NCBI GenBank assembly: GCA_958009085.1
Contig: OY253689.1
Span: 434,001-477,166, forward strand
DNA from: Protoeuglena noctilucae
Taxonomy: Eukaryota
Length of the DNA: 43,166 nt
Direction: 5' to 3'
Shown here: positions 7,823 to 39,740 of the stretch, piece by piece
How the letters are laid out: every line of letters starts with the position of its first letter
Position numbering within the stretch: position 1 is the first letter of the stretch
Position numbers and translations under genes: made by a program
Notes under the pieces: generated by a model
The model's database searches: none
The model's input: only the letters and a program-made list of their open reading frames with translations
What the model was told of the DNA's origin: nothing

Positions 7823-8091
7823 GGGCGGTGGTGGTAGTAGTGGGTGACGGTGCGTGCTTTCACATTCATAGTATCATCCATAGCGACTGAACGATGGAGT
7901 TGCTTCGATCTGTCCGTGCCAATTGCGATGCGATTTCAAACTCGACGCTGCATTTGAAAGACCCAACGGGCAGTGCCGGCGCTTGCATGTGTGGTAGATC
8001 CCGCTGCATGCGACCCTCGCCATCCGTCTCATGAGTATCACTATCGTCACCCTCCCATCCATCGCCATCGCCCCATCTATCGCCGCTCCCC

Positions 8092-11000
8092 TCACATGGG
8101 CAGCAGGTCCTCCCCCAGCGTCCAATCCTCCTCCTCCCCCTTCCCCCGCCCCCTCCGCTCCCCGTCCCCCTCCTCCTGCACCTTCACCCCCACGTTTACT
8201 GACACGGGCGCCAGGGGCTCCTCTCCCCTCGCCTTGCCCCTCTTGCCCGGCCCCGACTGCGCCTGCTCAGCTGCGTCTGCCTGCGCCTGGGCACGCTGGG
8301 CCTTGGCCAGCTTGTCTGCGATTGACGGGGGGGTGTGTGCGAGGGTAAGATGGCGAGCGAGTGGGGTGGGGGAGAGGTGGGGCTTGGCGATGTCGGGATG
8401 TCTGCAGTTAGTACCCTTAATAACAGCACTTCCACGCTTGTCATTGCGTATTGAGCCTTATGTTATCCAACAGCCCCACACACACACCCAATCCTCTCTC
8501 ACCCGCGTACTTTGCCTCGTCGTTGGTGAACCCCAATTCTCTCCCCAGATCCACCAGATACCGCAAACATTCCACATTATCCGCGTGTCTGGCGTGGATG
8601 GCCTGGTAACGGCGATAGGCGCCGGGGAGGTCGCCGGAGCGACTGGGGGGGGGTATAGGGGGGGAGGGGTGTTGGTAGATGTGATATGGGAGAGGGAGAG
8701 ATACAATTATCGTCAATTACTGGCACGAGCGTACATATGTCATCTACTCTCGCATTCCCATCCACTCATACCCCCACCCCACACACCCCACCCCTCTCTC
8801 ACCGAATGCACGAGGCCGCCATCAGCTCCCACTCACTCACACACACCACCACACCCACTCCACACCCACATCATTCTCTCACCGGATGCACGACGCGGCC
8901 ATGAGTTATCACTCACACCCACTGTCGCATCTCTCACCGAATGCACGAGGCCGCCATCAGCTCCCACTTGGCCTCCGCCGGCTGCAGCTGCGCAAGGATT
9001 TCGAAGAACGGCAGCGCGTCCGCGTAGGCGTTGTTCTTGACGTAGTAGACCCCCAGCCACACCGCCACGTCCATCGACGCGGGGAACACGCGGTAGGCGT
9101 CCTGAATGGGGGGAGAGGGATGGGTGATGATGGTGGGGTTACATGATCAAATGACTGTGGCAACACACTCATGGCACGTGGTGGGCGTCCTGGGAAAACA
9201 CAGCGATGGGATTATGATTATAATTGTGTTGGTGTTGGGTTTATAAAGGGTGTATTGTCGTGCGGTAACACTCGTCGTTGTGCCATACACACGCACAGTG
9301 CTCTCCCCTTCCCCTCTCATTGGCATATGCACGTCCACACACCCCCACATCCACCCACTCACCAGGAACATCCTCAGTGCCTTCCCCTCGTCCTGCTGCG
9401 CTGCGTGGATGCCCCCCAGCTTGACCATCAGAGAGGGATCGGCACCCAGGAACATCTGGGCAGACGCCTGCTCCAGCCACTGCGGATGAGAGATGGGAGT
9501 AAGGTGTATATTGAGAATGGTTATAGCAAGTGATGGTCGCCCAGAGGGATCGGCACCCAGGAACAAGGGATGGGTCTCAAGTGACACGGTGGGTTGAGGG
9601 GGTGTAGAGAGTAGAGTGGGACCGCGAGAGCGTGGCTGACAGTGAGGGGGGTGTACACAGAGTAGTGGGGTGAGACAGAGCGAACCCCAACACTGCACCT
9701 GCAACCCACACACGCACCCCCACCCCTCCCTCACAACACCCCCACACATGCACCCCCCCCCCACACCCCACCCCACACCCCACCCCCCTTGCCTTGACGC
9801 ACGACCGCACCCCCTGCCTCCTCCTCTCCCCTTCGAACTGCGTCAGCTCATAGCATAAAGCGATCTGCACGTGCACGTCCGGCGCGTCCGGCATCAGCAG
9901 GGCGAGCTTCTTGAAGCGGCCCATGGCCTCGCGGACGCGGTCGCTGCGCCACTTGTGTTCAAGTGATGTCCAGTCGATGGCCGCGGGGTCCAGCTGGGGA
10001 GGGAGAGAGGGGGGTAAGATTGAGGGGTGGTAACAAGTGAGGCAAAGGCAATGGTAGCTGTATAGGTCTGTCACCCCACCCACCCCACCCCTTGTGCACC
10101 GCCCCATCTCACATCCATCGCATCCCCACCCACCATGCACATCTCCCTCTCTCCCATTATCCCTCACCTCCCCCCCGCTGGACAGGTCCCTCAGCGCCAG
10201 TTTCCTGGCCACCAGCCCCGCGTTGTAGAGGGCATCGGCACAGTCGGCCTCCACCTCCAGCGCACGCTCGTACTGACTGAGAGTGGGGAGAGAAGGGGAT
10301 GTGTTGATGTCATTGTCTGCCACCTCCAGCGCACGCTCGTACTGGCTGGGGGGGGGGGGGGGGAGAGTGATGAAGGAAATGTGTTGCTATGCTTCTCATC
10401 CATGCTTACCGCAGCGCCTCCTCCAGCTCCCTCATTCACCACACACAACAACAAACACAGCCACCATTTATCACCCCATCTCTCCCCTCACCGCAGTGCC
10501 TCCTTCAGCTCCCCTCACACACTACACACAACACCTCCCCTCATACACACAACACATCACCCATCCCTACCCCCTCCCTCACCGCAGCGCCTCCTCCAGC
10601 TCCCCCCCCGCGGCCATCACGTTCCCCCTCGCCACCAGCGCCTGGGCGTTGTAGGTGTCAGCCGCCAGTGCCAGATCGGCGTTTCGCCTGGCAGCGTCCA
10701 AATCGCCCTCCATGAAAGCAATGGAAGACAAGGAGCCAGCCGCACGGGCGCGGAGGTCCTGGGGGGGAGAGCGGGATGGGGGGTGTTCAGTGAATGGGAG
10801 GTTGTGATGCGAAGATGTGACACTTTCTGAATGCAATTGAAGACAAAGAGCCGGCAGCGCGGGCGCGGAGGTCCTGGGGGGGGGAGAGGGGGGTAAGGGC
10901 GGTGATGTGGGTGAGTGAGTGAGTGAGTGAGTGAGTGAGTGAGTGAGTGAGTGAGTGAGTGAGTGAGTGAGTGAGTGAGTGAGTGAGTGAGTGAGTGAGT

Positions 11001-12156
11001 GAGTGAGTGAGTGAGTGAGTGAGTGAGTGAGTGAGTGAGTGAGTGAGTGAGTGAGTGAGTGAGTGAGTGAGTGAGTGAGTGAGTGAGTGGGTAAGTGAGT
11101 GAGTGAGTGAGTGGGTAAGTGAGTGAGGCTGGAGGTGACTTGTGGTGGGGATGCGTGTTACACTCCCGCCCATGCACACCCATCCACATCACCACCCATC
11201 ACTCGCCTTGTCCTTCCTCTCGAAGCTCTTGAGTATCTCCACCGCCCCCGCAAAGTCCCTCCCCCCCAGCAGCGCCTCCGCCTTGCACAGCTCCACCTCC
11301 CCCGCAAGCCGCGCCATCCCCATCTCCCGCAGCTGCCCCGCCGCCCACTCGAACCCCGCAGCGCGCGTGGGGCCGAGCGCGGGCGCCAGCACCCTCGCCG
11401 CACGCAGCACGGTGGCAGAGACCGCCATGCGCCTGCGCACCAACTCTTCACGCAACGAGTCGACGGCGTCTGGGTCAAAGGCCGTCTCCTCGCTCTCCTC
11501 GTCCAATGCAACGTCCACGGGGTCCAGGCCCTGGGGGGGAGGGATAAGGGGGTGGGTTGATGTGGGTGGGGGTGGGGGTGACATGAGTGGTGAAATTGGG
11601 GTGACATGCGACCCGCGAATGTGTATGTTTGTACATGTGCATATGTGCACATGTGCATGCATGTGTGTGTATAAGCGTGTCTGTGCACCATGCATCTATC
11701 ACTCTCCCCCCTCATCCCCACTCCCCCCATCTCACCCTGAGCAGCATCTGGAAGGCCGCCTTCATGCGCTCCTTGTCCCCCGCCGCGTACGCGCACACCA
11801 CCAGGTTGAACCCCGCTACGTGACTGGGGGCGTGCTCCATGGCCTGCTCGAACTGCTGCAGAGCGTCGCCCATGTGACCCGCACGCACGAACGCCAGCGC
11901 GATGTTTCGCTGCACCTGCCCCCGCAGCTCCTTGGAGGTGTTGGGGAGCTGGTCGACGGCCATGCGCCACATCTGGGGTGGGAGAGGGGGAGAGGGGTGC
12001 GGGTGTGTGTGTGTGTGTGTGTGTTGGGGAGCAAGGGGATAGTGGTTGTACATGATCAAGAGAAGTAGAGACGCTATGGCGACCTTAATTTGACACAATG
12101 CATTCGTCACACATCACCCATATCCTCTCGCATTGCGAAGTGCACCTATCACACAT

Positions 12157-12212
<56 letters not shown>

Positions 12213-13554
12213 ATGCACCCCATCTCCTCGCCTTGATGGCCTTGGCGTACTCCCGCTGCTCAAAGAGCGCCCATCACACATCATACACCATGCATCCCCA
12301 TCTCGCCTTGATGGCCTTCACATGATCGGAACATGCATTATGCACTTAGCTCCCCCCCCTTTCCCATCTCGCCTTGATGGCCTTGGCATACTCCTGCTGC
12401 TCGAAGTGCACGTTCCCCATGTTGATGCGCACGCGGGCGGGGTGCTGGAAGGCCTTGCCCTCCCTTAGCATCTGCGTGTACACCGACAGCGCCTCCCCCA
12501 GCAGGCCGTTGCGGTGCAGGCAGTCACCCAAGTGGAACTGCACCGCGAATGTCAGGTCCGTGTTCTGCATCGCCTCCGCTAGGCCCTTCTCCTGGGGGGG
12601 TAATGGGGTGGGGTGAGGTGGGGGCGACTTGCGATGTGAGCGGGGCAAGGGTATGAGGGGGGAGGGGGGTGCGGTGGGTGCGTTGCGGTTAATCAGTCTC
12701 CACACAGCACCTAGGAACTGTAAACTAACCACCCTGTCCAAGCACTGCACACACCCATCCCCCCTCACCTCTAAGAACCGCACCAGCGCCCTCTCCCTCT
12801 TCACCGCCTCCTTCGCCTTGTCGAGCGCCCCAGCCAGATTGCCCTGCCCCGCCAATGCAGCGCTCTCCTCGAGTGCCTCGTTTGCCGCCAGCTCCATGTC
12901 ACGCGCACGGGCCTCGGCGCTCCTCTCGATGCGGGGGGCGCCCACGCCGCCGCGAGCGCCTGGGGGTTGGGGGGGTGGGGGGGGTGGGTAGGGGTGCGGC
13001 GGTGGTGGGGGCGGTGGTGCGAGGGCTGGACTAGCCACTGTTGCTTGGCTGAGCCGGTCAACGCGAGAAAAGGCTAGGCCAATCCAAGTGTGCACCCTGG
13101 TGATGTGCCCACCTACCCCCTCCATCCCTCACCGAGTGCCATGGGGTCGAACGCCGCCCTGCCGCCCGGTGCCGCGAGTGCCCCCGTGGCGGGGGGGCGG
13201 CTGGTGTACCCAGCGCCGCGGTTGGACGTCATCGGACGGCCGCCCCCGAGACCGCCTGACCCCGTCACGTCCGCATGCCTGGCCATGGCGCTGGGCGGAG
13301 GGATGAAGCCGCCGCCCGGCTGCACGCGGGGGGCGCCCGCGGCGGTGCCCAGAGGCGGGCCGCGCTTGCCGGCGAACGCCGTGGCGCCGGGGTCCGGGGA
13401 GGGCGTCGTGGCGTCGTACCCCGCGTAGAGGTCCTCGTCCCTCTGCGAAAACGAAACGAAACAAGCGGGAGTTTGCAGCGCATTTATTTCTGCAACGAAC
13501 GGCGACGCGCGCGGAGGATGCGACACTGCGGGGACTCGCCGTGGTGCCTGCCAT
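8092..13554 (-). CDS. IFT88: Intraflagellar transport protein 88 (TPR protein), about 13 exons
   Basis: MAGTT|RDEDLYAGYD, RPMTSNRGAG, RVRINMGNVHFEQQEYAKAIK|MWRMAVDQ, KWELMAASC, HADNVECLRYLV and C-terminal DWTLGEDLLPM* are collinear with Chlamydomonas IFT88 as I remember it. Confidence 0.95.
10911..11126. repeat. (GAGT)n tetranucleotide microsatellite, about 50 units, inside an IFT88 intron
   Basis: Directly visible, with a few GGGT/AAGT variants at the right end. Confidence 0.97.
12159..12211. repeat. (CA)n microsatellite in an IFT88 intron
   Basis: Directly visible. A shorter (GT)n lies at ~12003-12024 in the same intron. Confidence 0.95.
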
Positions 13555-17800: not shown

Positions 17801-20800
17801 CGTTCACCTCGCCTCGCCATGTACCAACGCACCATCAACTCAGACCTTGTCGCATCGCACCTCGTCTCATCCCAACCAACTGACCATACCATCTCACCAG
17901 TCTCACGTCCCCTTATGTAACAACCCAGAAAGACTCTCTTGGCCGATTAACCGACACGCTGGAGTGGGTGGAGTGGACGGAGCAGTCCTTCAAGGCACGC
18001 GGCCTCGACACGCCCCTCTCCGGCCAGCGATTCAAATGCATGATCAGCCGCAAGTGGCTCGACCAGGACCCGGGGGCGTGTGGCATCAGCTACGAGCAGC
18101 CCAGGCGAGAGGGTATGGGGTGCACACATGCGACATAACAGACACCGCAGTCAACCGCAGCCCCCACAGCTGCCCATACTTCCTAGCGCCATCTCAACCG
18201 TCCCTGCATCCACTGCCTCTGCCAAACCCCCGCCTCTCTACCCGTCACCCTGCCATGACCATTCAAATCTCCCGTACCCCCCCAGGTGCGGCAACATCAG
18301 CGGCCAGGTGGAGCCGTCCCTGTGGTCGGCGTCCCATCGCGGTGACTACATGGTCGAGGAGTGCGCCCACTACAACCAGTTCCCCGACTGCGGCATTATC
18401 CCCCACGAGTCCGCATACTGGGACAAGGCGAGACATGCGGGGATGGATGCATTCTCGCAGATGGCATGCTTGCCGCTGATAGTACCTATACGCATGGCCG
18501 GCAATCTCACTTATGGACTCTCGCTGATGGCTTTGCGTGCATGTGCGGTTGCCTGCGATCAATGCTCATGGTCGACCATGCTTTGGTTGGCTCTACTGCT
18601 GTTCATTGTACAGTAGTTGAGAGTGCAACGACGGACCCCCCCCCCCCTACCCCACCCACCCAGGTCAAGCCCGCCAGCGCCATGTCCGGTTGGCACAGGC
18701 ACGTCCGCTCCATCGATTCGATCCTCTACTCCGCCGTGGCCATGTACGTGCTGGGGGGGGTCAGCCTGATGTGCGCGTACCTGGTGCATAGGTACTGGGT
18801 CGAGAGAGAAGTGGGGTTCGAGGTGAGGGGGGAATGGGTCGAGATGGTTGGGTTACGTATTCCCGCTCCTATTCCCACCTAGAGCAGCATTGCAGCAGTG
18901 GGTGGTTCATGCCCTCATCCGCCCCTCACCCACCCCGCCCCACTGTCCCACTGTGTGAATGCTTATTCACAGCATGAGCATGATCGGTGCGTCACCATCT
19001 CCCTTCAACTCCGCCCCCCCCCCCCCCCAGCACACGCTGGTGAGCGGCCCCCGTGCCCGTCACGCCAACGTGGTGCCCAAGCTGCAGGAGGCGAAGCACG
19101 AGGAGGTGTTTGATATTAAAGAGGGGTACCTGGTGAGTGATTGCAATGCATGGAGTGGATGGCAATGTGCATGAGTAGGGATGATGTGTGTTTGACATCA
19201 GAGAGGGGTACCTGGTCAGTGGACGTGATGGGTGGGGAAAGGGGATAGAAAGAGTGATGTGTGCAGAGACTCGGTTGGAAGATCGTTGTCCCCACCGTCA
19301 CCCCCTCTCCCTCTCAACCCCCCTCACTCCCTCCCTCCTCCCCCCCTTAGTCGTACCTGGATGGCTGGGAGGAGTCGGTGCAGATAGTGAATCTGACGAG
19401 CATGGACGTGGACGTGCGCATGATCGACAACGACGTGGGGGACGCGGATGACGACGAGAGGGAAGTCAGCTGCGGGGTCGTGGGGGCGGGGGGGACCATT
19501 GATGCCAAGCTAGCACAGGTGAGGGGGGGATGTCATGCATTGTGGGTGTTAAGCAAGCACAGGTGAGGGGGGGGGGGGATGTAATGCACTATGGATGCCA
19601 AGCTAGCGCAGGTGGGGGGGGGGGGGCTATGGGAGGTGAATGGCAAGTTACTGCAGGTGAAAGAGACAGTAACGACCATACAGGGTAGGGACGACCATGC
19701 ATGCGCAATCCCTCCTCTTCTCTCTTCCCTACCCTCGCATCCCCGGATCCATCCAACCCCTCCCATGCCACCCTCTTTCCTCTCCCACCACTGCCCCACC
19801 ACCCGTTTCCACCACCCTCCCCACCACTTTCCCAACCACCTCCCCCCCCCCCCCCCCAGGGCGTCTGGATCCGCGCCCGCACCGTGGACGGCACCCGCGC
19901 GACGCTCTTCTTAACCGAGGCATTCGCGTACACCTCCACCTACGCGCGCATACTGGGTAGAGACCGGCTGCCCCTCCCCTGCGAGCCGCGCACGGCCTGG
20001 ATGTGCCCGCTTGTGCACTACGATACCTACCGAGTCATCGTGTCCATCCACCAGCTGCAGCCGGGGCAGAGGTGACGAGTTAGATGAATAAGTCGAATGG
20101 GGATTAGTAAGTGGAATGGGGATTGTAGTTGTTTATGTTCATCGTATGCGCCTCTTCTGCCCCCCCCATCTCCTTGCAGCCCCGCCCCTCACCCACCACA
20201 CTCATTGTCAACATCGCCGCTGCACCCCCCGCCACTCCCATTACCCTCTTCTCCCCACCATAACACATAACACCTTCCCCTTTCCCCCCGCAGCCTCACC
20301 CCCGCGAACGTGGACACGGTGGGTCAGATCCACGCCATGCGCAAGGACAAGAGAGTGCGTGCGCTGATCGCTAAGGCACGCGCGGTGGGGGGCATGGCAC
20401 TCGCGGGCAAGGCAGCCAAGGACTACAGGCACAAGGTGGAGGCGGCGAAGGTTACCGCGACCAAGGCGCCCAGCAGCAAGGGTGAGGGGAGGGGGGGCGG
20501 TGGGACAGGGGAGGTGGGTGATGTTCAGTGACGGTGGATGCAGCGACGGTGGGATGACCGGCGATGCCCGATGCGCCCTCTCATGTCGCTGTTGCTCTCT
20601 TCTCCTTTTCTCTCGTCTCCAACACACCTCCCCCTTCCTTCTGAACCCTATGCACCTCCTCCACCCTCCCCTTCCCTCTCATCTCCCCCACCCTCGTCCC
20701 CCCACCCTCCCCTTCCTCTCATATCCCCCACTCTCCCCCTCCCCTCATATCCCCCCACTCCTCCTCCTCCACCCCTTCTCTCATCTCCCCCACACGCAGC

Positions 20801-23800
20801 CCCCCGCACCGTGTCCCTCTCCACCACCGCCGCCACCCACGGACCCCCCTTGACGGACCACCGCGACCGCCCCCGCCCCTCCCGCAAGCCGAGGGGAGCA
20901 TCCGAGTCATCCAAAGGGCAGTGGGCGCTCTCCCCCGCGCTCACGTGGGTGTGGGTGGAGCCGGGCATGCCGGGTTACGATCGCGTGACTGCCCTGGATT
21001 CCCGGGGCCGCCCCGCCCCCGATTCGCGCCCCGCCGATGCGGCGCTGATGGGCGCGGGGGACGGGCAGGGATTCGACGCCCTCGGCAACTGGGCGAGGGT
21101 GGAGGGGGAGTGGGCGTGGGTGGGGCGAGAAGACCCCAGGTGGGGGGCGGAGGGCGATGTATATACATTTGATATTGGATGTTAAGTAGTACTGTCATAA
21201 ATAGTCCCACTCACACGGTCGACAACCTGTAAACACTCTCAGTCTCCTTCGCCATGAACACACCATGCGCACCCTCAGTCCCATTCACTCATCGACATGC
21301 ACATGACGCGCCAGATGTACGCCCATGCACCTCTCTCTCTCTCTCTCCCGCAGGTGGAGTTCGCTGTTCCCGCCCATGCCAGCCGCGATGGAGGCCACGG
21401 ACACTGATTTTGACGAGGAGGGTGACGCGGGGGCGGAGGAGGGGGCGGTGATGGATGAGGACGTGGCGGTGGGGAACGTGCCGGTGAGTGGGGTGGGGGT
21501 AGGGCAATCGATGGGTGCATTGCGGACATGGATAAGACTGTGGATGAGGAGATGAGCAGAGGGGTTATATATGAGAGGCGAGCAGAGGGGCGGCAGGGTG
21601 CTGGGTGATGTGATGTGATGAGAAGGGGTGGGCTGGGTGTGGATGACCGTGGTGTGACTATGGGAGACGTCAGGTAGAAGACAGAGGGTGGTTGCGTGCA
21701 TGTGTGGCTGTCGCCTCATGCGATTGGTTGTGTTCTCTCTCTCCCCCCCAGCACAAGGCGGGGTCGTGGGTGATGCGTGCGGGTGACTGGGTGTGGAAGG
21801 AGGTGGGGGAGGAGTGGCCGGACGCACAGGAGCCCAGGCACGCCGTGTACACGCAGGCAAGCACATAAGCATATGGGGGATCGTGATGGGAGATGGATGA
21901 GCTGTTGGTGTACCATGGGACTGCCACTGCCGCGACTGCCACGATTGGCTGCCTCTGCCACCCTTGCCACCATACCTGCTACCGTCCCCACTGCCACCCC
22001 ACTGCTAACCCCCCTGCCCCCCCCACCACCACCCCCACAGCCACCCCCACTGCCACCACCCCAATGCCACCACCCCCACCCCCCCTGCCCCCCTGTCCCA
22101 TCTCCACACCACCCCCCTCCCCCCCCACTCCCCCAGTCGGACATGCGTCGCCCAGAGGTGCTGGACGTCAGCCCCGTGGCCTCCCCCGACGCTGAGCCGG
22201 GCCGCCCCGTGTCTCTGCTGGTCGCCAATGCCGAGGGGGTGGTGGTGCGGCTGTCGGCCGTCACGCCCGACGGATCCATCGCCGAGCTGCAGACGCTGGT
22301 GAGGGGGGGGAAGGGGGGGCGCGAGTGCGTTTGATCTGGGATGTTCGATCTATCTAAGATGGGGATGCGCTATCAAACACATTAGAAAGACGCAGTCGCT
22401 ATGTGTGTGCGTATGTGTGGCTCTCGCTCAGTGCACCCATGGCATCGCCTTTGCCTCTGCCTCTCTAACAAACACACTGAGCTGTGGACCGATGCACGCA
22501 CTCGTCACCACTAGTGTCAATTAGTGTCAACTATGCTGCCCTCTAACCCTTTTCATACGCAGAAGCCCAAGCGTCGTGCACTCGTTACCACTAGTAGTAC
22601 TGACTATGCTCCCCCCCCTCATTGTCATGCGCAGAAGCCCAAGCGTCGCTGGCGAGGCGAGGTCCCTGCGGGCACGTGGCTGGTGGCGGACAACCTCTCC
22701 GATGACCACGACCCCCTGTTCTTCGAGGAGACACTCGTGCCCGTGGCGGCGGGGCTCAGGGGGAGGGTGAGGGGGGGGTATGGGGGGGTGGGGGTGTCGC
22801 TTGTTGCACAGCGAAGGGCGTGGGGGGGTAGAGGGGTGCAGGGGTGTCGCTCGTTGTTCAGCAGACGGTGTCGCTTGTTGCTTTGCAGATGACGTTGCTC
22901 GTTGCATAGCGAAGGGCGTTGCATAGCAGGGGTGTCGTTCGTCGCATGGCGGGGAGTATGACAGTATCACTGTCATAAGCGACACTGTTTACTTAGTAAA
23001 CAGTATCGCTCATGACATCCATCGGGCAGCCAACATCGTCCCCCTCACTATCCACCCCACCCCCGCAGAAGGACCACCCGTGGGGCGTGAGTCGCCGCAC
23101 CAGCTGGATGGTGCCCTTTGACACGCACAGGGGGTACGACATCCGACTGGAGATGAGACTCGTGTCGGGTGAGGGGGAGAAGGGGTGGTGATTGCAACGG
23201 TGTGGGAGGGGGAAGGGGGGGGATGTGCTTGCAACGCGCGAGCGGGAGCAGGTGCGACTGCGCGTGAGCGGGAGCGGCAGAGAGGACCGTGTTACGTCGT
23301 TCCAGCGCACTGTGGCCACTTCCTCCATCGCTGCTGATACTGACATCTAAACCCCTGCTGATATTGACATCCCCCCCCCCCACCCACGCAGCCATCGACG
23401 GCCGCCTGCTCCCCCTCTCCCTCCCCCACGCCCCCCTCCACGCCGGCCCCGAGGTCGCCCACTTCTCCAACGTCAACTCGTCCGCCCAGGGAGAGGGGAC
23501 GGCCACGGTGCTCATCCGCAACGCGCAGAGGTTCGAGGTGGCGGTGCAGGTGTACGACGCGGAGGGGCGACCCCACACGCACGCCACGCTGCGGGCGGGG
23601 GAGCGGGTGTCGGCCACGCTGCCCAGGGGGGCGTGGATACGGTGAGGGGATGAGCAGCATCGCGTGTCAATGTGTCGTGACGGTCACGAGAATCGCTCGT
23701 CTCCCATCGCATCGCAACAGCCGCATGCTCCATGTTGCATGTTGTCACCAGCCATGTGCATGTCCACCTGGTCATTTCGTGACTCCCATGCAATACCTAC

Positions 23801-34160: not shown

Positions 34161-37100
34161 ATGTCCGCGCGCATCTGGGCCTCCCCGGGCTCCGCAGCCG
34201 CGCTGTCACAACTATCGTTTGCCGCTAGTCGTCGACACACGGCCCTCATCCTCCGCGCCTCCTCGGAGCGGCGGAGGGGCGACGTGGCTGCACCTGGCCA
34301 GGCACGGGGACAGGCAGGCAACGAGGGGGGATCGGGCGAGGGGAGGAGCGGCGGCCGGCAGCGAGATCCGGGGAGCAAGCGAGGTACGCAGAGACAACCG
34401 GGGCGCTGCCGCTGATACGCTGCCTTGCATCGATTGCCATGGCACACTGGGCTGCGTGCCACCCTTCCCGTGCAGGGCCGGGGGGGGTCTCTCTTGCGGG
34501 CGGTAACGGCGCTCCTACCCCTTCAGATGCGTTTGGAGCATTTGAGGATGAAGAGGTGGGTGTAAGGGGGTTGACAGGCTGGCTGGGGGTCGCGTGCAAT
34601 TGCGGCGTATGGGCTGTCCTGTTACCTGTGCCTCCCATCACCTGTGCCTGCACGGGTCGATGGTGCGTGTAAAAGTGGTCTACGCATGTGTTGCAGGTCT
34701 CACGCTTCCTGTCCGGCGCGCTTGATGCGAGGGGCGGTGTGGGGCGGGGGCGCGGGGGCCGGGGCATGAGGGGGCGGGGCGGGGGCAGAGGGGCCAAGGG
34801 CGGGCGCGGCGGTCGCAGTGGCGGTGGCGGTGGCGGCGGTGGTGGCGGGCAGCGGGAGGCGCGTCGCGGTGGCAGGGGTGGCGGTGAGAGAGGAGACGCG
34901 GGCGTCGCGAAGAGGGGAGGGAGAGGGATGAGTGGGCGTGAAGAGGTGAAAGAGGAGGGGGGGAGGGAAAGTGAGGAGGATGAGGTGGAGGGGACGGGTG
35001 GAGAAGAGGAGACGGTGGTGGAGCAAGGCCGGGGGGTGGATCACGACGCGGGCGATGATGCGATCGCGGGAGAGAGGGAGGGTGAGGTAGCAGTGGAGGC
35101 ATCGAGCGTGGGTGCAGTGGCGACGGGCGAGGTGCCGGGCAGCATGCCGGGCATGGATGGCGCGCCCCCTGCCCCTCTGAGCGTGGAGGACGAGTCGCTT
35201 GTGTCGCTGGGGTGGGCGGGGGTGTGCCGGCAGGTGGCGTTCTTCTGCCAGACTCCGAGGGGGTTCCTGGGGGCGCTGGGGGGCGGGGTGCGGGTGGGGA
35301 GGACGCGGGAGGAGAGCGAGGCACTGCTGGGGGAGACACGGTGAGGGGGAGAGGGAGGGAGTGCGGCATTGTTAGGGAATACTAGTTGTGCAATATGCAC
35401 CCCTCCTCTTGGTGAGTCTCATGACACAACTCACCGCGTCCCTTGCCCGCCCCCTCTGCGCAGAGAGGCCATGGCAATGATGGCAGCAGTCAACAGCGCC
35501 CCCCTCCCCCTCCACGCCCTGTCCTCTGTGCTTGACGTGGCGCCGGCATTGCGGGCGGCGCGTGCGGGGCGCGTCTTCACGCCGCGGCAGGCGCAGGGGG
35601 TGGCAGACACAGTGGCGGCACTGGCGGAGGTGGCGGGGGCGGTGATGGCCGCGAGAGGGGCGCTGGCGAGGGGGGCGGAGGTGGCGGGGGTGGCCCTTGG
35701 GGACCAAGAGGCGAGGGCGCGATGCGTGGCATGACGCATGAATCGATGGTGGAATGGCATGGGTCATGGGTTGTGCATCGCATGCTGTATGTACGGGGTG
35801 GTTAAGCGGTAGCAGCACGCAGTTGGTAATCTCTCCCTCCACACCCCACGCCCACCCATTCCTCCCTCCCCAGGTCGCGTCCCTCTCTCGCCTCGCCTCG
35901 TCTCTGTCGCGGTGCGTGTCGGGGGGCCGCGTGGCGGATGGGGCGGACCCATCCCTGCCGACGGTGCGGGGGGAGCGGAGGGCCAACGCAGAGGAGCTGA
36001 GGAGGAAGGCGACAGAGATGGCACGCGCACTGTTCGCCACAGGTGAGAGGATGCGGTTGATGAAGGGATGTGTTGTTTGGCACCAGTGGAAGCATGTGTT
36101 GAGGTGGCGTGATGATGGGGGGGAGCGATGCGGTGGTGACGGCCACGTCATGTCGCAGACTGTATGGCCCAGTTCCCTCGCTGCATCATGAAACGCTCTC
36201 CTCCCTTCCACATTATACACAGTATGCTATCAAAGCCTTCGTTGCCCCCCTCTTTACTCCCCCCAGGTGCCCTGGAGCGCCCCCAGGTGGTGCAGCGGGA
36301 GGGGCGGTCGTGCCTGGCCGTGCGCAGTGGGCGCATGGGGGAGCTGTCCAGGGGGGCGGTGGTGCTGGGGACGTCGAAATCGGGGCAGACGCTGTTCGCG
36401 GAGCCGCCGGAGCTGGTGGAGAGGAACAACAGGGAGCAGGGTGAGTGGAGATGGCATGCGGTGCGGATGAGCGATGGCACCGACGACGGAGGACAGGTGC
36501 TGTTACGTGCTGTGGCGCTATCAGATATTGTCACTTCATGCCTCACTTATGCTCTCTGCCCATGCTCTGTGCCCATCCTGCCACCCGATGCCTCACTTAC
36601 GCTCTGTGCCCATCCATCATTCCAGACCTGTCGTCGATGGAGGCGGAGATCGAGGAGAGGGTGCTGAGGGGAATGACGCGCGACGTGGACACGCACGCGG
36701 ACCTGGTCGTGAGACGCGGGGTGCGGGGGATGCATTTGTCCATCGCGGTCACCTTGGCTGCAGGGCAGGATGAAGTGCAGCTGCCTCGTCCCACTGCACC
36801 ACCCCTGTGCACCACCCTTGCGCACCATGCCCCACTGTGCCACCCCACTGCGCCCCATGCCTCACTCCTAACCCACTCTCCCCTCTCCCCCAGCTCCGCG
36901 CCGTGTCTCTCGCTTCCCACGTGGACATGGCCCAGGCGCGCGCCCGCCACGCCGCGTGGATGCGGTCCTCGGACGTGCGACTGTGCGGTGCGGGGGAGGC
37001 GCCGCTGCACCTGCCCGGGTGCCGGCACCCCGTCATGATGGAGGCGGGGCTGCCACCGCTGCCGCAGGCGAGGGGGAGAGAGAGGATCGCAGCACATCGC

Positions 37101-39740
37101 AAGCACCCTGGCTCACCAACAGACGCGGTCAGCTCCCAGCACGCATGCTCGGCGCTTCCCCTCATTCTCACACGCGCGTGATGTCTGCTCCCCCAGGCAC
37201 CCCCCTCTCTGCTGATGGAATTCGAGTCGGATTACCTGGGACCCGTGGGGACGCTCGGTGGCCCCAAGGGGGCGGATGGGGAGGGGCGGGAGGGTGCGGC
37301 AGGGGGGCAGTGGGACGAGGCGCGGATGCCGAGGCCGGTCGACTGGGTGGTGCCGGAGGGGACGCGGTGAGTGAGTGGAGATGACTGCATGGTGGGACGG
37401 GTGGCGCGACGGAGCGGGGTGCGCTGGTCGCCGCCTGCATGAGGGCCGCTTGCAACACTAAACCACCCCCCAACCCCTGCTTGTCTTCTGCAGCGTCGTC
37501 GCCATCACGGGTCCCAACACGGGCGGCAAGACGGCCTCCCTCCTCGCCCTGGGCCTGGCGTCCCTCATGGCGCGCGCGGGGCTCTTCCTGCCCTGCTCCG
37601 CCAGCATGGGCCTGCCCCGCGTGCCGTGGTTCGACGCGGTGCTCGCGGACATCGGAGACTCCCAGTCCCTCGAGCAGAGCCTCTCCACCTTCTCCGGACA
37701 CGTGCGCAGGTGAGCACACCATGCGACGTGACGTGTGACACGTGTGACTGCGCGCGCTTCCTTGCTGAGTCCATGACCATGCACCCGCGTGTCTCTCTGG
37801 TGACTGCGTGCGCTTCCATGCTGCTTTGCATGACCGTGCACCCGCGTGTCTTTCCGACCCAGGTGCTCCCGCATCCTCTCCCGCGCCACTCCCCAGTCCC
37901 TGGTGCTGCTGGACGAGGTGGGGTCGGGCACGGACCCAGACGAGGGGGCAGGTGAGAGGGGGTGCTGTGGATGTAAGAGTCAGAAGTGGGTCTGCCTTGT
38001 CGCAGTCTGTCTGTAGGGGTCGCGAGTGGGTCTACTTTGTCGCATCTGTGATGCAACCACGCATCGCGTTCCCCCCGCAGCCCTGGCTTGCAGCATCCTC
38101 CTCCACCTCCGCGACACGGCCGCCCTCACCGTGGCCACCACGCACCACGCAGAGACCAAGGCCATGGCTGGCAGCGAGGCGAGTGGCAGGGGCAGGTCGT
38201 GTTGTCACCCATGCACCTGCGACTGCGTCTGGCCCAACCATGCTATGCTCTGTCTCCCCAGCCCGGCTTCGCCCGTGCCAGCGTAGGCTTCGACACGCAG
38301 ACCCTGCGCCCCGCCTACGCGCTGCTGTGGGGCACGGCGGGCGCCAGCAATGCCCTCGACATCGCACAGGCGCTGGGATTCGACCCGGCGGTCGTGGAGG
38401 TGAGCGGTGGAACGGACACACGCTCGTGTGGATGTGAGCGGTGGGGGTGGGCGTTGGACTGGACACACGCTCGTAGGGATGTGAGCGGGGGGCAAGTGTT
38501 AACACCGTGGCATCGGGATACGACAACCCCTCCCACTCTATCGCTGCAAGACCGTGGCATGTCGACGACAACCCGCTTTCGCTCCTCCCCCTTCAGGAGG
38601 CGCGGGCGGTGGCGGCGGGCGTGGGGGTGCGCGCGCTGGCAATGGGCAGCTCTGGCGCGAGGGGGGGGCTGGCTGCTGAGGTGGCGGAGGCGCAGCAAGA
38701 GGCAGAGGCGGCCAGGGGGCGGCTGTCGGCACTGCACGCGGCGTTGGATGAGACGCGGGCGCGGAGGGCGGAGGTGGAGGGGTGGGACGCGGGGGCGGCG
38801 GCGGAGAGCGTGGCGGGGGAGGTGGGGGAGGAGGCGGCACGGTGGGTGGCAGAGGCAGAGGTGAGCGGCGGGGAGTGGTGGCGCGGCAGGCCGTAGCGCG
38901 TATGGCTGCGTCCCGTGTAGCTGCGGTGTGCTGGTGAGTAATCACGCATGCAGGTATGCGTGTGCATGGCCGTGCCCGTCACTGCCCCTATCGTCGCCCA
39001 CACCGCAGCGGGGCCAGGTGTCCGTGGATGCCGCGATAAGCGCATTGGCGGCGATGGCGGGGGAAGCACGGGAGCGGGTGGCAGCCGCGGCGCCAGAGTG
39101 GGCGAGGGCGGGAGGGGACGGCGTGGATGGCGCGGGCGAGGCGGGCGGCGGGAGGGAGGGGTGGCGCCCGTCGGTCGGGCAGCGGGTGCTCGTGGCGGGT
39201 GCTGCGGGCGCCGAGGGGGTGGTGCGCGCGGTGGGCGACGCGTGGGCGGTGGTGGCGATGGGTGCCGTGGAGACGCGGGTGGGCAAGGAGCGTCTGCGGC
39301 CGTGGGACCCCCAGGGGGCAGAGGGGGCGCGGGGCGGGGGGGGAGCGGGGGGAGGGCAGGCGCGGGGGAAGGGGCCGGAGCGCCTGGCCGCCGCGGCAGA
39401 GGCAGTCAAGCAGCGGTGGAAGTGGGCGGGGAGGGGGCGGGCGGGCGGGGCGGTGGCACTGGCGGGGGCGGGCGGCGGGGGCGGCGGGGGCGGCCCGGCG
39501 ATCGCCACGTCCCGCAACACGGTGGACGTGCGCGGCATGGGCGCCGAGGAGGCCGCGGAGGAGGCGGCGCGCGCCGTGGGGGCGGCGGGGGCGGGCGGCA
39601 CGGTGTTCATCGTGCATGGGGTGGGGACGGGGCGCGTGCGTGACGCGGTGCGGGAGCTGCTGGCGAGGGACGCTCGCGTGGCCAGCGTGGCGTACGAGGA
39701 GGGCAGCCAGGGGGGCTGCTCCGTGGTGACCCTGGCGTGA
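34161..39740 (+). CDS. MUTS2: Plastid MutS2 with C-terminal Smr domain, about 15 exons; start codon inferred
   Basis: [17 protein letters not shown]-terminus, [11 protein letters not shown], Walker [57 protein letters not shown], and Smr motifs [17 protein letters not shown] at 39738-39740. Confidence 0.93.

Follow-up and report, generated by a model that had tools for sequence, protein, structure and literature searches.

The copied exon start in the IFT88 intron

The 43,166-nt stretch of DNA analysed here (the window) is the telomeric end of contig 22, with TTAGGG repeats, in a genome of 26.3 Mb and 27 contigs. From a by-eye reading of its gene content, including a J-domain plus ferredoxin protein, we take the host to be a flagellated green alga; marine metagenomes contain DNA near-identical to the window. 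The gene of interest, on the minus strand, is IFT88, whose exons match PDB entry 8bd7_A (E 1.3e-20 and 6.2e-7). One of its introns carries an additional copy of the beginning of the exon that follows, and such intronic copies of exon sequence from a splice site are called echoes below. In the direction of transcription the features are:

11207..11530, minus strand: upstream exon of IFT88, bordered at 11206 by a GC donor; its end equals the 24 loose letters of the RNA contig at 10760
10911..11089, minus strand: core of an (ACTC)n microsatellite, within the intron 3' half in its upstream version
10874..10910, minus strand: C-rich tract and AG (10875-10874) of the echo, an unused acceptor with a matrix score of 26.0
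10829..10873, minus strand: the echo, an intronic copy of the exon's first 15 codons with six silent differences
10759..10828, minus strand: spacer, a second version of the intron's 3' half, with a TGA stop (10789-10787), a C-tract and the used AG (10760-10759)
10583..10758, minus strand: real IFT88 exon of 58 codons, whose first 46 nt are the echo's template; the RNA contig covers it with 0 other letters

Echo and real exon start match without gaps over 46 nt at an offset of 115 nt, and both translate to DLRARAAGSLSSIAF. The preliminary description had reported an exon-start copy with six differences, all of them silent, and this stands: the pattern with N at the six differing sites has exactly two matches in the window, at 10758-10714 and 10873-10829 (minus strand), and none in 100 shuffles. 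All six differences lie at four-fold third positions, affecting 6 of 11 four-fold, 0 of 29 zero-fold and 0 of 5 two-fold sites (counts obtained as the whole 66-echo set minus the set without the IFT88 echo). To judge from rare A/T-ending codons, three or four of the six changes seem to have arisen in the echo, yet none is non-silent. The intron bounds given earlier needed slight correction, with the upstream exon ending at 11207 and the intron, which has a GC donor, extending over 11206-10759.

The real exon matches IFT88 residues 437-492 of 8bd7_A and is identical to the relative P0002 at 42 of 57 positions (74%). Conservation of the echo-region peptide in that relative indicates that the real exon start is under strong constraint. 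A protein search of the genome with the echo-bearing exon returned one match and no second IFT88 copy, and neither the echo unit nor the spacer occurs anywhere else in the genome. Scanning metagenomes with the exon protein left one locus (L084) out of 596 pattern hits, a bacterial chance match that was discarded.

Tandemly duplicated, mutually exclusive exons likewise present an exon-like copy with silent-biased differences beside a working exon. The IFT88 echo differs from them in being partial and absent from the RNA contig; as had been observed before, it has no convincing donor, none being called between the two copies, and if used would run into a stop, the predicted position of ~10787 agreeing with a TGA at 10789-10787, 28 codons into the frame. 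On these grounds a tandem or mutually exclusive exon was rejected, and so was a recursive splice site, as the echo's AG is followed by GAC and not by GT.

The silent-only differences resemble allelic ones and a long microsatellite adjoins the site, as might be expected if two haplotypes had been joined in tandem during assembly. This misjoining, against which the preliminary description had warned, was not found. Four of the 23 listed sequencing runs were compared with positions 8000-10900 of the window in the form of assembled contigs, from which rare forms drop out. One of them, a marine metagenome of an independent study, holds a 549-nt contig that runs across 10349-10897 with neither a differing letter nor a gap, which places both copies in tandem in wild cells and refutes an artefact, to which we assign a practically negligible probability. 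Over 2.9 kb the wild sample did not differ from the assembly, and at 80% likeness it gave no second haplotype. Two runs under the same species label (X16, X17) had no match on 8000-10900 at 80% likeness and supplied no outgroup codons, which is not evidence of absence. As a separate observation, a 2016 marine metagenome equals the assembly over the covered part of 8000-10900 with no listed difference, introns included, though the introns look fast-evolving.

A contig from RNA covers 10583-10760 without mismatch, and the loose letters beyond this are those that close the upstream exon, which establishes the joint from 11207 to 10758. The silent variants of the echo had been proposed as a marker to look for in transcripts; the RNA contig carries the real codons at all six sites, and in the one run of assembled contigs RNA depth over the echo (bin 10813-10900) is zero, with no joint there. 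In all four echo-bearing introns that the contig crosses, the first donor and the last acceptor are used and seven echoes are bypassed. The IFT88 echo is therefore real, not an artefact, and unused in the main transcript as represented by one RNA contig.

Echoes at donors and acceptors across the genome

Our scan covered the window and 99 stretches of 10 kb, altogether 1,033,166 nt or ~4% of the genome, with a codon model trained on the genome. Of these stretches the first 60 were drawn blind from the interiors of chromosomes, and the other 39 were chosen close to chromosome ends or to echo-rich loci; gene models are our own calls, made without annotation, and the scan requires a C-run on one strand. 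From 1219 called acceptors and 848 called donors, and after 102 raw calls, we obtained 75 echoes (25 acceptor, 50 donor) at 65 splice sites, against 3, 1, 1, 3 and 0 chance echoes in five permutations. Their median offset is 90 nt and the median exon part 25 nt. The 20 echoes in 600 kb of chromosome interior translate into roughly 900 per 26.3-Mb genome, a rough figure; some echoes visible by eye were missed by the scan. Dropping two clear false calls (window 38434, intron-internal; L089:5703, a coding repeat) leaves 73 echoes, while the acceptor, donor and pairing figures rest on a set of 67, where six of the eight calls removed by eye were good ones.

Thirteen echoes are identical to their exon, 15 have silent changes only, 47 of the 75 have non-silent changes and 5 have stops, which argues that the class as a whole is not kept coding. 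The preliminary description had read the IFT88 echo as a case of coding constraint on intronic DNA. We cannot uphold this interpretation, as the RNA contig bypasses the echo and the class to which it belongs decays freely. Among donor echoes 39 of 45 retain GTGAG or GCGAG. Echo counts drop as the GC content of the locus rises (rho -0.42), and neither CpG decay nor lower GC3 had a clear effect in echo-covered exon ends (GC3 0.855 vs 0.877, P 0.24). In two genes of low-GC setting (L019:600-2560 and L038:1300-2760), most of the intron ends in these stretches bear echoes, with a maximum of two at one site; by eye we presume the genes to be SPT16-like and GMP-synthase-like, respectively.

Further echoes in this part of the window are:

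12232..12323, minus strand: two donor echoes that follow the GC donor at 12372, at offsets of 66 and 141, with 2 silent and 2 non-silent differences in the far one
10410..10509, minus strand: two donor echoes behind the donor at 10582, at offsets of 91 and 173, bypassed by RNA
10320..10345, minus strand: acceptor echo 69 nt ahead of the acceptor at 10276, bypassed by RNA
9175..9189, minus strand: acceptor echo 88 nt ahead of the acceptor at 9101, with two non-silent differences, bypassed by RNA
8803..8913, minus strand: two donor echoes behind the donor at 8937, bypassed by RNA

In the last pair the near echo (8905-8883) has 4 silent differences in a 23-nt core and the far one is identical over 31 nt. 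Three of these four silent differences are C-G exchanges, and the order of the copies is odd for a simple stepwise duplication. The arrays at 12250-12320 and 10430-10510 (minus strand) consist of successive decayed copies, that is, pairs of dead with dead sequence that might serve as neutral controls in a larger count. Not every echo includes the AG: at 9556-9535 (minus strand) some 22 nt of the following exon's interior recur in the intron, the splice site not being part of the copy. Neither is duplication restricted to splice sites, as intron-internal tandem duplications of 37-98 nt occur at 38394-38487, 22790-22930 and 36540-36620.

Two echoes outside the window deserve mention. A 50-nt acceptor echo at L096:4653-4800 (G000:C8; echo L096:4751) has five differences, all silent, with intron 3' halves that barely align, and is the best independent parallel to the IFT88 echo. 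A 43-nt donor echo at L100:2490-2660 (G000:C20; echo L100:2532) has three differences, all silent first-position changes in Leu or Arg codons. Both were found independently of the IFT88 case.

Silent differences and the origin of the echoes

A processed pseudogene compared with its parent pairs a dead with a constrained copy, and per site the silent differences are then about double the non-silent ones. The same multiplier of 2 is our null expectation for echoes: silent sites accumulate differences along both lineages and non-silent sites along only one, with mutation rates taken from zero-fold sites. Unlike a processed pseudogene, the dead copy here sits within the same intron at a distance of 115 nt, and the echoes as a class are somewhat above the two-fold value. 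A live exon beside a dead copy already doubles the silent differences, and a codon-shaped pattern may pass to the copy from a working exon even if the copy has no function at present.

In the 73 echoes the silent multiplier was 2.8, 3.5 and 4.3 at three trimming settings (P 0.03, 0.008 and 0.005), in the set without the IFT88 echo 2.6-3.8 (P 0.02-0.07) and in the 61 echoes outside the window 2.65-3.4 (P 0.03-0.08), all of these P values being modest and dependent on trimming. The earlier, less filtered set of 66 echoes had a four-fold to zero-fold ratio of 2.3 (interval 1.5-3.6). The silent periodicity disappears in shifted frames. At silent sites transitions are even between the copies, with G or C in the real copy in 20 cases and in the echo in 22, near the prediction from zero-fold rates for a dead and a live lineage. 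The dead/live model explains most of the silent bias and leaves a modest remainder.

For the IFT88 echo, the chance of six silent differences out of six is 0.001 if both copies are neutral, 0.012 with one dead and one live copy (2x) and 0.038 at the class's own rate (3x). Its earlier portrayal as an outlier is borne out to the extent that under the dead/live null any of 75 echoes would be so extreme with P 0.015, the set including this hand-picked case. All-silent echoes make up 2 of the 8 with at least five differences, against 0.14 expected (P 0.008), where one is the selected IFT88 case and the eight include one false call.

We interpret the IFT88 echo as a dead tandem duplicate across a splice site, its all-silent pattern reflecting chance and selection of the tail, and give this reading a probability of roughly one half. 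A tandem duplication of ~115 nt would have included the 3' half of the intron with its AG as well as 46 nt from the exon start. The downstream copy alone continues into the rest of the exon and would so have stayed the exon start, while the upstream copy would have turned into intron sequence, in agreement with its removal from the one RNA contig. Events of the same kind would account for the copies found at many donors and acceptors of the genome. Thereafter the live exon would have been free to change only at silent sites and the dead copy everywhere, doubling the silent differences, which roughly fits the class; the IFT88 echo would be its extreme tail, picked by a reader seeking striking cases. 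Its differences, all of them silent, probably go back to working exon sequence rather than signal use of the copy.

Duplication inside genes and the gain of introns by tandem genomic duplication have reportedly been treated by Gao and Lynch in 2009 and by Hellsten in 2011. The duplication proposed here resembles that process, as set out in a review (PMC3443670), in being a short tandem duplication within a gene that leaves the protein unchanged; it differs from what is described there in that an existing intron grows, a piece of exon is lost with it and no AGGT pair is used. Intron gain by tandem duplication was rejected for the IFT88 echo, which begins with GAC, has its sole in-register AG in the acceptor itself and faces an RNA with the real codons.

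The main rival reading, which we advance only tentatively, is that the echo is dead but was copied from a long-diverged working allele or a since-lost paralog and represents a fossil allele. A mid-intron break would have been repaired from the homolog's intron half plus 46 nt of exon and then rejoined, or an unequal exchange would have had the same outcome, and both the six silent differences and the unlike intron halves would be older than the duplication. A silent multiplier above 2 even outside the window is in line with such an origin, and so are the echoes with silent differences only (silent/non-silent 6/0 in IFT88, 5/0 in L096:4751, 3/0 in L100:2532 and 4/0 in the core at 8905-8883) and an architecture that reads whole intron, exon piece, half intron. 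It would, however, demand alleles differing at about half of the four-fold sites, whereas the wild sample has no difference over its 2.9 kb, and the genome holds no second copy of the gene.

The intron flanks bear on the same question. They are no more alike than random introns in 34 of the 73 echoes; in the IFT88 intron the anchored flank score has z 1.9, and the local alignment score is matched by 95 of 486 random intron ends (0.195). In 22 echoes with clearly alike flanks pN/pS is 0.39, about the null value, compared to 0.13-0.18 in those with unlike flanks (16 silent and 21 non-silent vs 59 and 31, Fisher P 0.03, likewise modest and trimming-dependent). This difference is what copying from a diverged allele would produce, but flank likeness shows no rank correlation with pS or pN (P 0.32 and 0.66), and slippage in G- or C-runs, expansion of (ACTC)n or the selection of exon parts by the scan can also give unlike flanks. 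C-G exchanges account for 16 of 28 differences at four-fold G/C sites and 6 of 30 at zero-fold sites (P 0.006, post hoc), an excess that would fit what working exons of high GC3 collect. Besides allele copying, faster silent change in live exons may add silent differences.

Improbable in our view is that the echo is in use, its AG being chosen at a low level or conditionally for regulation by decay, or the copy serving as a repair template, with selection keeping its coding sense. Zero non-silent differences at 34 zero- and two-fold sites would be consistent with such selection, the echo acceptor outscores the real one, and assembled contigs drop rare forms. Against this, the one RNA run has neither cover nor a joint at the echo, a transcript stopping at 10787 has no need of the 15 residues, and the lack of GT at the echo start leaves neither recursive splicing nor one-copy excision. 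As for a repair template, we reason that conversion or collapse fast enough for selection would erase the silent differences, and that conversion in either direction keeps the multiplier at 2 or below.

Echoes might alternatively be long target-site duplications left by a mobile element with insertion sites in C- or G-rich intron ends, the spacer being the insert. Long duplications at LINE insertions in Chlamydomonas provide a precedent (PMC9977147), and every called echo abuts a C-run on one strand, as the scan requires. All-against-all comparison of the 75 spacers nevertheless recovered merely low-complexity words of 12-22 nt and no common insert, many spacers resemble the neighbouring intron half, and the silent excess above two-fold would be left unexplained. 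The mobile-element origin was accordingly rejected, and we consider it very improbable.

Choice between real and copied splice sites

How the first AG is skipped was raised as a question by the preliminary description. The acceptor of the IFT88 echo has a matrix score of 26.0, that of the real exon 21.3, and signal strength therefore does not explain the skipping in this intron. Weaker signals were also rejected as a general reason: the real site outscores the echo in 14 of 22 acceptors (P 0.19) and in 28 of 45 donors (P 0.005), and in IFT88 the order is reversed. Folding predicts pairing of the IFT88 intron's G-rich start with the C-rich stretch ahead of the echo AG (fold z only -1.73), and the echo tract is predicted to be more paired than the real one, with unpaired values of 0.60 and 0.22 vs 0.85 and 0.64. 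RNA structure was rejected as a general cause of skipping, as the echo tract is less open than the real one in just 10 of 20 acceptor echoes.

In human F7 intron 7 a minisatellite spans the splice donor, and the intronic pseudo-sites are unused (PMC1557585). There the unit likewise holds the exon end and the splice site, intronic copies keep good signals and only the exon-adjacent site is used. The differences from the case described there are that F7 concerns one donor in one gene with near-identical units of 37 bp, whereas echoes occur at donors and acceptors of many genes in 1-3 copies, often with unlike intron flanks and a codon-shaped divergence. In IFT88 the repeated unit includes the exon-intron boundary, with a C-tract, AG and 46 nt in both copies, and the echo behaves like a splice-site-spanning tandem duplication with unused pseudo-sites.

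Scanning is a widely accepted model for 3' sites according to the Discussion of the F7 report (PMC1557585); simple scanning would favour the upstream AG in the IFT88 intron, the use of which would give a premature stop after 28 codons. Pairing across the exon would lead to the choice of first donor and last acceptor, a pattern that for donors agrees with the F7 case. From its presence in four introns with seven echoes we infer that the spliceosome takes the sites nearest the exon. The matrix scores suggest that the echo site could work if the authentic AG were removed.

The IFT88 echo by itself is most probably dead DNA, and what is of use is the class. Each echo is a natural contest of a real against a copied splice site with nearly equal signals, so that the choice of splice site can be tested on a large scale in a compact microbial genome. 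Should the silent excess above two-fold hold genome-wide, short duplications templated from diverged alleles would be a route of intron growth. A further, rather unlikely extension is that this alga often mends broken introns with sequence from a diverged homolog, so that exon ends and halves of introns from other working alleles accumulate in its introns. At hundreds of splice sites the echoes would then amount to a dated archive of alleles since lost, and the spliceosome would ignore even better-scoring ones by cross-exon pairing. In open-licence papers and bioRxiv we found no report of a genome-wide echo class at both intron ends in an alga, nor of diverged-allele templating of short duplications as a route of intron growth.

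Two minor observations concern the introns themselves. GC donors (GCGAG) look frequent, being present in the IFT88 introns at 12372 and 11206 and also at 18105 and 18428. The introns are G-rich in the 5' half and C-rich in the 3' half, and the two halves could pair.
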